In this document: one piece after another, positions 12,001 to 15,000 of the stretch
How positions within the stretch are numbered: position 1 is the first letter of the stretch
Layout of the letters: every line of letters starts with the position of its first letter
IMG/VR virus record: IMGVR_UViG_2778261067_000008
Span: 1-42,756 of that record
Reading direction: 5' to 3' (one strand)
DNA length: 42,756 nucleotides
Origin: a virus
Taxonomy: Duplodnaviria; Heunggongvirae; Uroviricota; Caudoviricetes
Made by a program: the position numbers

Positions 12001-15000
12001 TGGCTGATAATGCCAGCGATCAGGGTGAGTGCTGGCCCAGCTACCAGCATATTGCTGACCAGTGCGAGATTAGCAAACGTTCTGTGATGAATCATATTGC
12101 GGCCCTTTGTGATTCCGGGCTGGTAAAAAAAGTCACCCGGAAAGGTGAAAAAGGTAACTCAAGTAATATCTATCTCCTTCATCTTGATGGTGCAGGAGAT
12201 TCACTAGGGGGTAGTGCAAATAATTCACTATCTGGTGCAGCAAATTCACCAGGTAGTGCAGGAGTTGCACCAGGGGGTAGTGCAGGAGATTCACCCAGAA
12301 CCAGTCACTCTTTTGAACCAGTCAAAGAACCAGTCAATGAACCAATAGCTGTTGGTGCATCTGCTGATGAGTCTGTGCGAGTTCGTTCAAACCGACCGGA
12401 ATACTCTCCGGAGTTTGAGCAGGCATGGCTGGCATACCCCAAACGTGCTGGTGGCAATTCAAAATCTGCAGCCTTCAAAGCCTGGAAAGCCCGTTTGAAT
12501 GAGGGGGTAAAACCCGAAACCATGCTGGAAGGTGTGAAACGCTACGCGGGCTGGGTATCTGCGATGGGTAACAGCGGAACACAATTTGTGAAACAGGCTG
12601 TCACGTTCTTTGGTCCGGATCGTCATTTCGAAGAATCCTGGGAAGTTCCTGCGGTATCTGCAGCCAGACGCGAGGACCCGTACTTCAAAGCCAGTTACGA
12701 CAACGTGGACTACAGCCAGATCCCGGCAGGATTCAGGGGGTGATCATGAGTCTTTTGAATGAAGTTCAGAAATTCATTGAAGCCCATCCGTGGTGTACTT
12801 CCGGAGACATTGCGGATGCTTTTGCAGGTTACTCACGGCAGCGCGTTCTGCAGTCAGCAAGCAAGTTACGTCAGAGTGGGCGTGTGGCTCACCGTTGTGA
12901 AGGAGATACACGCAGACATTTCCCACGCCTGACTGAGAGAGCGCAGGAGCCGGAACCACAACCAGTTCGTGAAACCAGACCTGTGCGCAATTTCTATGTC
13001 GGCACTAACGATCCCCGGGTGATTTTGTGCCTGACCCGCCAGGCGGAAGAACTGGAGTCTAGGGGCTTATACCGTCGTGCTGCAACGGTGTGGATGGCGG
13101 CATTCCGTGAAAGCCACTCCCAGCCAGAACGAAACAATTTTCTGGCGCGTCGTGAGCGGTGCTTACGGAAAAGCAGCAAGCGCGCTGCATCAGGTGAAGA
13201 GTGGTATCTGTCAGGGAATTACGTGGGGGCTTAATGAGTAATAAATATTGCCAGGCGCTGGTGGAGCTGCGGAACAAACCAGCCCATGAACTGAAGGAAG
13301 TGGGCGATCAGTGGCGCACGCCGGATAACATTTTCTGGGGAATTAACACCCTGTTTGGCCCGTTTGTTCTGGATCTGTTCACTGACGGTGATAACGCCAA
13401 ATGTGCCGCGTATTACACGGCGGAAGACAACGCGCTGGCGCATGACTGGTCAGAACGTCTTGCGGAGCTTAAAGGTGCTGCCTTTGGTAATCCCCCATAC
13501 AGCCGCGCCAGTCAGCATGAGGGGCAATACATCACCGGCATGCGTTACATCATGAAGCATGCCAGTGCCATGCGTGATAAAGGCGGGCGCTATGTTTTCC
13601 TGATCAAAGCTTCCACCAGCGAAGTGTGGTGGCCGGAAGACGCAGACCATATTGCTTTTATTCGCGGGCGTATTGGTTTTGAACTTCCTGCCTGGTTTAT
13701 CCCGAAGGATGAGAAGCAGGTGCCGACAGGCGCTTTCTTCGCTGGTGCTATTGCTGTTTTCGACAAGACCTGGAAGGGACCGGCAATCAGCTACATCGGG
13801 CGCGATGAACTTGAGGCATGTGGCGAGGCGTTTCTGGCGCAGGTTCGCCAGCAGGCGGAAAAACTGGTCAGGGAGATGGCGGCATGACGACGTTAACTCA
13901 ATGCCAGCAGCAGGTGCTGGATATGCTGATTTCTTACCAGCAAGAACGTGGCTTCCCGCCAACCAATCAGGAGGTGGCAACCATGCTGGGATACCGTTCA
14001 GTGAATGCAGCGGTGGAGCATCTTCGCGCACTGGAGAAAAAAGGCGTCATCACGATAAAGCGTGGCGTGGCCCGGGGGATAACGCTTCATACCGCGGTGA
14101 AGGACGACGACAGCGAGGCGGTCGGGATTATCCGCGCACTGCTTGCCGGTGAGGAAAACGCCAGGCTGCGTGCAGCCCACTGGTTACATGAGAGGGAGCT
14201 GAAAGTATGAAGCTGATTCTGCCTTTTCCGCCCAGCGTGAACACGTACTGGCGACACCCCAACAAAGGGGCGTTTGCTGGTAAGAGCCTGATAAGCGCGG
14301 CGGGGCGAAAATTCCAGAGCGCGGCGTGTGCAGCAATAGTTGAGCAGTTACGTCGTCTGCCAAAACCAACGTCGGCACCTGCTTCAGTGGAGATCGTGTT
14401 GTTTCCTCCGGATAACCGGATCCGCGATCTGGACAACTATAACAAGGCGCTGTTTGACGCCCTGACCCACGCGGGTGTGTGGGAAGACGACAGTCAGGTG
14501 AAAAGAATGCTGGTGGAGTGGGGACCGGTTATCCCGGAAGGGAAGGTCGAGATCACTATCAGTAAGTACGAGAAAACGGCGGGTGCAGCCGCCTGATTAA
14601 GAGGAGAAACGAAGTATGAATAATCTGATGGTTATTGATGGTATTGAAGTTCGTCGTGATGCTTATGGACGTTACAGCCTGAACGATCTGCATCGCGCAG
14701 CAGTAGCATCTGGTGCAAATGCCAGAACCAAGGAGCCAGGAAAGTTTCTTTCCAGCCAACAAACTGTTGAGCTTGTTCATGAATTGACCAACACCCAGAA
14801 TTTGGGTGTTGACCCGGTGAGTGTGATTCATGGGGGAAATGAACGGGGAACGTATGTCTGCAAGGAACTGGTGTATGCCTATGCAATGTGGATCAGCCCG
14901 TCATTCCATCTGAAGGTGATCCGTACTTTCGATATGGTAACCAGCGCACCGGAAAAATTATCCGGACAGGCTGCTGACAAGATGCAGGCTGGCGTGATCC

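Follow-up and report, generated by a model that had tools for sequence, protein, structure and literature searches.

We analyzed a 42,756-nucleotide (nt) stretch of viral DNA, hereafter the window, which spans positions 1 to 42,756 of the IMG/VR record IMGVR_UViG_2778261067_000008 (Caudoviricetes), and found that its replication initiator gene contains an array of dyad-symmetric repeats at which this lambda-like prophage probably begins its replication. The proposed origin occupies window positions 12190-12350, inside the linker-coding part of the initiator gene. Direct observation covers the anatomy of the array, its absence from the rest of the window, its conservation as DNA and the way in which its arms and the initiator's recognition helix change together; from these we infer protein binding, duplex unwinding and origin activity. 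The coordinates of all features are collected in Table 1.

An initial annotation of this DNA had described two families of short tandem repeats within the initiator coding sequence, and both were found at the positions claimed, beyond what chance would produce. Family A comprises five units with a 15-bp imperfect palindrome, GTGCA-N5-TKCAC, as their core; they occupy 12190-12294 (nt 266-370 of the gene) at spacings of 24, 21, 21 and 24 nt. This core is absent elsewhere in the window on either strand. Its six matches, with the fully palindromic iteron 4 counted on both strands, compare with 0.20 expected, and none of 100 dinucleotide shuffles reached six. Tandem Repeats Finder reported family A at periods of 21 and 24, and a second repeat search also recovered it. 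Family B lies directly 3' of the iterons and contains three exact GAACCAGTCA units within 39 nt (12298-12336), followed by a degenerate copy, GAACCAATAG; Tandem Repeats Finder assigned it a period of 12 with 2.5 copies and 94% matches, and the number of these tandem 12-nt copies is variable. Across the window, GAACCAGTCA with at most one mismatch was not more frequent than expected by chance, the signal being the three exact 10-mers in 39 nt. The description of the repeats as iteron-like held for family A only; family B is part of an invariant 27-nt element, common to the whole family, which adjoins the last iteron.

The repeats are in frame and encode GAGDSLGGSANNSLSGAANSPGSAGVAPGGSAGDSPRTSHSFEPVKEPVNEP, amino acids (aa) 89-140 of the initiator, nearly all of which falls within aa 91-158, a region that AlphaFold2 modeled with a predicted local distance difference test (pLDDT) score below 50 between a confidently modeled winged helix and a helical C-terminal domain. 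The repeat-encoded segment, described in the initial annotation as a Gly/Ser/Ala/Pro-rich linker, is therefore predicted to be a disordered linker between domains, and a segment of this kind can tolerate whatever peptide the DNA dictates. An Rfam scan of 11600-13000 gave a single match, to mir-875 (22 bits against a gathering score of 84), which is spurious and caused by the palindromes. Another tandem repeat, with a 15-nt unit, CAAAGATATAAATGA, in 2.5 copies with 90% matches, lies at window positions 906-942, outside the replication region.

The repeats were compared with those of a diverged set of relatives, consisting of ten phages with N-terminal domains 54-72% identical to that of the window and 80 prophages (67-88% identical), each from another gammaproteobacterial species; hosts in the set as a whole include Vibrio, Klebsiella, Serratia, Aggregatibacter, Pseudomonas, Aeromonas, Shewanella and Xenorhabdus, among others. 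In all, 89 loci were examined, namely the window, eight of the ten phages and the 80 prophages, the last from a scan of genome contigs. In 77 of these 89 loci the layout was the same, with the array in frame and in the corresponding position of an uninterrupted gene. The arrays of the diverged loci contain 1-7 units, each a 5-N5-5 dyad, spaced by 21-24 nt; among 50 arrays of the window's type, 169 of 178 intervals fell within this range. Since such spacing amounts to about two helical turns, the iterons would lie on one face of the DNA. In these relatives, flanking positions extend the consensus iteron to 19 bp, T-R-GTGCA-N5-TKCAC-Y-A. The last 9-nt spacer is CAGGGGGTA or TAGGGGGTA, or the inverted CACCCCCTA or TACCCCCTA, in nearly all arrays.

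Comparison of these loci showed that the two arms of the iteron change together while the dyad is kept (GTGCA/TGCAC, TGCCA/TGGCA, GGGCA/TGCCC, GTGAC/GTCAC and GTAGGC/GCCTAC), and that the arm type tracks the recognition helix, approximately SKRSVMNHI at aa 50-58 of the window's initiator. Iterons of the form GTG[CA]A...T[GT]CAC accompany helices of the form S[KR]RSV[MI][NS]H, as in the window (SKRSVMNHI); TGCC[AG]...T[GA]GCA accompanies SK[ST]xVRxHI, as in RothC (SKSAVRNHI); GGGCA-GGAGC-TGCCC is found with SRSTVKSHI in Stx2a_F451 (Eru5), GTGAC...GTCAC with SKRSVMRHI or DKRTAMRHI in D67, and GTAGGC...GCCTAC with DRSTVRKHI in Pseudomonas prophages. The Pseudomonas loci L152, L161, L164, L172 and L174 have GTAGGCC-based iterons, for example the perfect palindrome GTAGGC-CCACA-GCCTAC beside GTAGGCCCAGAAAGCAC, and the same 27-nt element follows. 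On the strength of these sequence comparisons, the N-terminal winged helix is presumed to be the iteron-binding module.

In 22 arrays the asymmetric site points both ways, in some cases as exact reverse-complement pairs. These flips are partly explained by half-site variants of two kinds that mix freely, but the 5-nt centre also inverts (GGAGA versus TCTCC) and exact reverse-complement pairs occur, which supports true inversion of whole sites. The peptides encoded by the arrays of different relatives are unrelated to one another (GAGDS, GESPA, SEKSA, GMPADST, PSDRMSP and GGAGAA). Joint change of the arms, occurrence in both orientations and unrelated peptides cannot have arisen through selection on the peptide, but can be explained by selection on a DNA site that is bound by a protein.

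The 27-nt element, AGAACCAGTCACTCTTTTGAACCAGTC, which encodes RTSHSFEPV, stands at a fixed distance from the array, with the last iteron ending exactly 2 nt before it in 49 of the 50 arrays of the window's type (type I), and it was found with at most 7 mismatches in 71 of 80 diverse genomes. Among 68 non-redundant relatives, mean pairwise identity within the N-terminal domain was 0.74, 0.82 and 0.42 at first, second and third codon positions, respectively. Over the element's first nine codons, third-position identity was 0.93, and no nine-codon stretch of the N-terminal domain exceeded 0.58. The rare Arg codon AGA in the element is kept in 63 of the 68 relatives, and where the element has changed, the substitution is often non-synonymous (ACC>ATC, CCA>TCA, TTT>CTT/TCT and CAC>AAC). 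The contrast between 0.93 in the element and 0.42 in the N-terminal domain indicates that the DNA itself is under selection. At least two GAACCAGTCA units, spaced by 17 or 12 nt, are present in 57 of the 68 diverged relatives, and 165 kb of flanking control DNA yielded only 9 matches, which makes the units specific to this location. Across these 68 relatives the element was also the least stable 30-mer within ±400 nt (z +1.5; GC content 0.39-0.41 versus ~0.52), with a second minimum just left of the array (z +1.2). The Aliivibrio loci L158, L166 and L175 carry a variant of the element, AGAACCAGTCATAGAACCAGTCAATTAGAACCAGTAAAAAATATAAAAAAATC, ~330-400 nt after the gene start, in which three close units are followed by a truly A/T-rich run, a version closer to the lambda layout than that of the window.

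The initiator gene occurs at 97-100% identity in SfV (orf39), cdtI, mEp460, phage 2H10, Stx2c phages and Stx2a_WGPS2, and at 88% in ST64B (sb42). A scan of viral contigs returned only copies that were 99-100% identical, which were used for a census of copy number and not for covariation. Looking for the repeats in close relatives that share the initiator was a check suggested by the initial annotation, and the array was present in all 81 near-identical relatives analyzed, with 4-8 iterons (mode five) and 2-5 family B units. Differences in array length among close relatives are insertions or deletions of whole units, of 66, 42, 21 or 12 nt. In copies of equal length, variable positions numbered 8 of 32 in the linkers between iterons, 3 of 50 in the arms, 1 of 25 in the centres and 2 of 27 in the 27-nt element. 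ST64B is ~99% identical to the window through the N-terminal domain and all of the repeats, and ~80% identical from the end of the B repeats to the stop codon; the boundary, ~20 nt right of the 27-nt element, places window 12349-12743 against ST64B (L002) 3425-3819. In view of this sharp mosaic boundary, the N-terminal domain and the repeats are inherited as one module.

A query consisting of this module (window 11925-12400) was found in 932 of 5,426 complete E. coli genomes (17%), in up to four places per genome; four places among the E. coli genomes were on plasmids. The presence of co-resident prophages with identical iterons raises the question of cross-talk between origins and initiators. 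In every genome or database entry listed, the module was annotated simply as 'helix-turn-helix domain-containing protein', the name also borne by every one of the 5583 initiator homologues found, and no origin feature was present in the annotated phage records inspected.

Altogether, these results are consistent with a model in which dimers of the N-terminal winged helix would bind the five dyad iterons, as the covariation suggests, and the bound iterons would form a nucleoprotein complex resembling the O-some. The 27-nt element, which is relatively AT-rich and carries GAACCAGTCA repeats, might then be the site of duplex opening or of the action of a factor common to all hosts; alternatively, the AT-rich segment to the left, 12140-12189, might be opened. 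The exchangeable C-terminal domain would recruit the host helicase and primosome, and would do so directly, because a screen of early-operon genes (window 1-9000 and 13200-17200) revealed none for a helicase, primase, helicase loader or polymerase. Transcription of the early rightward operon would pass through the site, as in lambda. A broader proposal, which we advance tentatively and consider rather doubtful, is that the HTH_36 'O-like' initiators of temperate phages of Gammaproteobacteria share a single, apparently undescribed origin design. Such a design would combine a variable array of 19-bp dyad iterons next to the DNA-binding domain, an iteron specificity that a small number of recognition-helix residues would reveal, and a fixed 2-nt distance to a universal AGAACCAGTCACTCTTTTGAACCAGTC. 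This element would be recognized sequence-specifically by a common host factor or, on single-stranded DNA, by the conserved part of the initiator, and the helicase would be loaded without a phage loader.

Three other explanations of the array were weighed against an origin. That the repeats are mere low-complexity Gly/Ser/Ala/Pro linker, made and resized by replication slippage and devoid of a function as DNA, would fit the predicted disorder of the segment, the whole-unit variation in copy number among close relatives (insertions or deletions of 66, 21 and 12 nt) and the fact that all units are multiples of 3 nt. However, it is highly improbable, since the peptides are not conserved across relatives, yet the dyad architecture, spacing and position are; moreover, the site occurs in both orientations, the arms change together with their symmetry kept, the synonymous sites of the adjoining element are near-invariant from Pseudomonas to Vibrio, and the arms vary less than the inter-iteron linkers in close relatives. 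We also consider it unlikely that the iterons are genuine binding sites of the N-terminal domain that serve regulation (autorepression or roadblock of the initiator's own gene, handcuffing or prophage incompatibility) while replication starts elsewhere. Covariation does demonstrate binding specificity and not initiation, up to four copies of the module per E. coli genome make cross-talk plausible, the least stable DNA near the window's array is not on its right side, and plasmid Rep proteins commonly autoregulate, as in pIGRK (PMC6854812). Against regulation alone, the window (42.7 kb) contains no other copy of the iteron and hence no second candidate site, an origin, and not an operator, typically has such a fixed 2-nt junction to an element that is conserved and locally unstable, no promoter-like site is nearby, and lambda, the closest known analogue of the layout, uses the arrangement as its origin. 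The search for sigma-70 promoters covered 11600-13300 and found none, and thus gave no evidence of a promoter internal to the origin.

The third explanation concerns the 27-nt element and the B repeats, which might be homology at a module boundary for the exchange of C-terminal domains, or might encode a functional peptide motif, RTSHSFEPV, and in either case would not be a site of unwinding or loading; we regard this as rather improbable. The element does sit where N-terminal modules are joined to different C-terminal domains, the ST64B identity drop begins just past the B repeats, and three proteins (P0066, P0068 and P0072) join RothC-, F451- and BZS1-type N-terminal domains and iterons to the C-terminal domain of the window exactly at RTSHSFEPVKEP. 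Either these three recombined naturally within the conserved element or, since the metagenome contigs that encode them are short (2-3 kb), they are assembly chimeras. For the peptide motif, H128, S129, F130, E131 and V133 are invariant among aligned homologues, but substitutions in the element are often non-synonymous and third positions are fixed, the opposite of what selection on the peptide would produce. Recombination alone leaves unexplained both the near-identity of the element across Pseudomonas, Aggregatibacter and Vibrio and its constant 2-nt distance from the last iteron. A role as a boundary is also compatible with origin function, not exclusive of it, and the conservation of the element may partly reflect or enable modular recombination.

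Several points nevertheless weigh against the assignment of 12190-12350 as an origin. The relatives are phylogenetically related, so that counts of loci are not counts of independent events. In the window itself the 27-nt element is ~58% A+T and lies at the 82nd-89th percentile, with no pronounced AT-rich tract, and the least stable DNA of the neighbourhood, 12140-12189, precedes the first iteron. This left segment might be where unwinding occurs instead, although its signal is ambiguous because it also encodes the conserved wing of the DNA-binding domain. The 27-nt element could be maintained as a recombination junction instead. A two-iteron allele of E. coli and Shigella, 247-251 aa in length (P0029-P0037), lacks 22 linker residues, and one of its forms (P0030, 250 aa) is present on 64 contigs; one relative from a metagenome-assembled genome has a single iteron. 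These cases suggest that array length is not strictly required or that such copies are defective. No phage helicase-loading gene was found among those screened, and neither a DnaA box (at most one mismatch) nor an IHF consensus site was found in 11700-12900. Finally, Eru types of Shiga toxin (Stx) phages are defined by gene content only and the replication of Eru phages is said to be uncharacterised (PMC8951638), and the literature searched contained no experiment on the HTH_36 initiator family.

The initiator matched phrog_270, 'replication initiation protein', over nearly its whole length (E 1.9e-88, aa 3-271) and the Pfam family HTH_36 (PF13730) at 43.5 bits against a cut-off of 25 (E 2.8e-11, aa 17-67). 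The DnaD_N family (PF21984) scored 23.2-26.7 bits, below its curated cut-off of 27. AlphaFold2 modeled the N-terminal domain with pLDDT values of 78-91 as four helices followed by a wing of two strands. Foldseek returned just generic winged helices at E >0.01, including DnaD-N 2v79 at E 0.045, and therefore no family was assigned from the fold. The C-terminal domain matched the C-terminal parts of phrog_26426, phrog_3729, phrog_1701 ('DnaD-like helicase loader') and phrog_9327 ('primosomal protein'); profile searches identified neither a Pfam family nor a relative of solved structure for it, and it is presumed to recruit host replication proteins. Because its two halves hit separate sets of PHROGs, with the annotations 'replication initiation O-like', 'primosomal protein' and 'DnaD-like helicase loader', the initiator is built of two modules. 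Among relatives, the C-terminal domain has been exchanged independently of the N-terminal domain and iterons, and the N-terminal domain was found paired with a DnaB-like helicase (V039C), P-like loaders (RothC and S1249) or a primase-helicase (SI5 and F451). In some E. coli proteins (P0049-P0052, P0077, P0027, P0041 and P0025) the first 70-90% of the initiator is fused to RusA (PF05866), PerC, Dam or PF06894; such proteins probably arose by deletion or frameshift as the prophages decayed, and they are named 'RusA family endodeoxyribonuclease' in some sources.

The initial annotation had likened this arrangement to lambda and taken it as the likely origin of replication, a reading that all of the comparative tests made here support. 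The parallel is borne out for the architecture, iterons inside an initiator gene, and not for the protein, which is no homologue of lambda O by sequence. Membership of the lambda O family (Phage_rep_O, PF04492) was rejected, since no PF04492 match was obtained at E <=10 (lambda O itself scores 123 bits) and BLASTP was not significant. The lambda origin has four 18-bp dyad iterons at nt 349-433 of the 900-nt O gene, spaced by 20, 24 and 23 nt and followed by an A/T-rich block, and the O genes of lambda and lambdoid phages, including P22 gene 18, resemble the window family in having four to six tandem dyad iterons of ~18-19 bp at 20-24 bp spacing. Further likenesses are the position of the origin within the initiator open reading frame (ORF), flanked by a DNA-binding domain at the N terminus and a C-terminal domain that can be exchanged, the less stable region to the right of the iterons (in the window family, as the minimum across relatives, but with the least stable DNA near the window's own array lying to its left), the flexible linker encoded by the iterons, and the location of the gene in an early rightward operon after cro and cII. 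In lambdoid phages, moreover, iteron specificity differs between relatives and the flanking region is conserved. Unlike lambda, the window has no 40-bp A/T tract, having instead the 27-nt element with its GAACCAGTCA repeats; it has no P gene, the downstream genes encoding PerC-like, Dam, LexA-DNA-binding-domain and RusA proteins; and iterons of its family occur in both orientations among relatives. The sequence evidence therefore points to a lambda-like origin that would use an unrelated initiator, a parallel of architecture and not of family.

Other systems share parts of this design. Iteron plasmids (RK2 oriV, R6K gamma ori, pPS10 and pIGRK) likewise have initiator sites of ~20 bp at about two-turn spacing and an adjacent unwinding region with short repeated 12-13-mers, and in pIGRK a short conserved region beside the iterons is also bound by Rep (PMC6854812). 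However, the iterons of plasmids generally lie outside the rep gene and are direct repeats to which monomers bind, whereas those of the window are dyads inside the gene. An iteron-plasmid origin of the Rep_3 type was rejected, because there is no Rep_3 match, the dyads lie in the gene and 11700-12900 contains no DnaA box. Repeats of an origin inside the initiator's own coding sequence are also known from SPP1, whose oriL lies in gene 38, and from the rep gene of the lactococcal phage TP901-1; these differ from the window in their hosts and partner proteins. The N-terminal domain of the window's initiator resembles that of DnaD-like initiators below the curated threshold, with no detectable membership of the sequence family. 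In a Pseudomonas phage, 'repeats within the O-like gene' have been taken as a sign of lambda-like replication (PMC8508860), so the general idea is already familiar.

The window's gene is 98.8% identical over 819 nt to that of the Eru6 region of an Stx phage (Stx2a_WGPS2, AP012537), and the gene order that defines Eru6, a Rha/Ash gene upstream followed by an HTH_36 gene to the right of cI/cro, is the same in the window. The paper that defined the Eru types noted the HTH_36 motif of Eru6 (PMC8951638), and the Rha/Ash gene present in the window is the one that defines types Eru6, Eru7 and Eru9. The F451 relative of the module corresponds to 'Eru5'. Neither iterons nor an origin for the Eru5 or Eru6 type were found in the two Eru papers searched.

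The region as a whole resembles the early right region of lambda, with genes for cI, a cro-like protein, CII/CP76, an Ash and Rha protein, a 74-aa ORF, the initiator, a PerC-like protein, Dam, a LexA-DNA-binding-domain protein, RusA, DUF968/HNH and a Q-like antiterminator. Since phrog_821 covers only aa 61-387 of the Ash and Rha protein, its true start is probably downstream of 10544. The ATG of the initiator overlaps the stop codon of the small ORF upstream (ATGA), which also precedes the initiator in cdtI, SfV and PhiR63_1. The PerC-like gene starts 3 nt past the initiator stop codon, and cdtI has no PerC-like gene. The left operon encodes an exonuclease, a PAPS-reductase-like protein, a deoxynucleoside monophosphate phosphatase and several unknowns, and the initiator seems to be the sole dedicated replication gene of the window. 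No GATC was found in 12019-12617 (~600 nt, including the whole array), despite the presence of a phage Dam gene and a window average of 3.7 per kb; this may be due to chance.

Table 1. Positions of the replication initiator gene, the putative origin and neighbouring features in the window.
Feature	Position	Strand	Evidence or remark
S24 cI-type repressor	8953-9645	-	
Ash (aa 117-212) and Rha (aa 223-312) protein	10544-11707	+	387-aa ORF; phrog_821 covers aa 61-387
Small conserved ORF, 74 aa	11704..11928	+	phrog_1153 (function unknown); translationally coupled to initiator
Replication initiator gene	11925..12743	+	272 aa; ORF list, PHROG and Pfam matches
N-terminal winged-helix DNA-binding domain, aa 1-88	11925..12188	+	HTH_36, AlphaFold2 model
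Least stable AT-rich segment, left of iteron 1	12140..12189		40-mer nearest-neighbour free energy (dG) at 98.7th percentile of window; GC 0.38
Iteron 1, GTGCAGGAGATTCAC	12190..12204		
Iteron 2, GTGCAAATAATTCAC	12214..12228		
Iteron 3, GTGCAGCAAATTCAC	12235..12249		
Iteron 4, GTGCAGGAGTTGCAC	12256..12270		Perfect 5-N5-5 palindrome; matches both strands
9-nt spacer, CAGGGGGTA	12271..12279		G5 tract; precedes last iteron
Iteron 5, GTGCAGGAGATTCAC	12280..12294		2 nt from 27-nt element
27-nt element, AGAACCAGTCACTCTTTTGAACCAGTC	12297..12323		Two GAACCAGTC(A) units 17 nt apart
Family B	12298..12348		GAACCAGTCA units at 12298, 12315 and 12327; degenerate GAACCAATAG at 12339
C-terminal helical domain coding region	12363..12740	+	PHROG matches to C-terminal parts
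PerC/YfdN-like putative transcriptional activator	12746-13234	+	Pfam PerC aa 98-149; phrog_1324

A published origin for SfV, ST64B or Eru phages, or for HTH_36 initiators, was not found in the literature searched; older SfV and ST64B papers lie outside that literature, so one may have been published. Likewise, no description was found of the iteron design, the match between helix and iteron or the 27-nt element, with many older papers being outside the searched literature. The layout of an origin within an initiator gene is expected, and the features that extend across the family may be undescribed.

The initiator family is widespread, being carried by SfV, ST64B, cdtI and Stx2c/Stx2a (Eru6) phages among others, with diverged versions in many Gammaproteobacteria. 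A defined origin together with a predicted match between iteron and recognition helix would provide a direct handle on the replication of these phages, and would bear on the incompatibility of co-resident prophages and on the copy number of Stx phages, which affects toxin dose. The locus is also a clear example of a DNA signal that determines which peptide a disordered linker contains. The arrangement will not surprise phage biologists, and it extends the lambda paradigm without overturning it.

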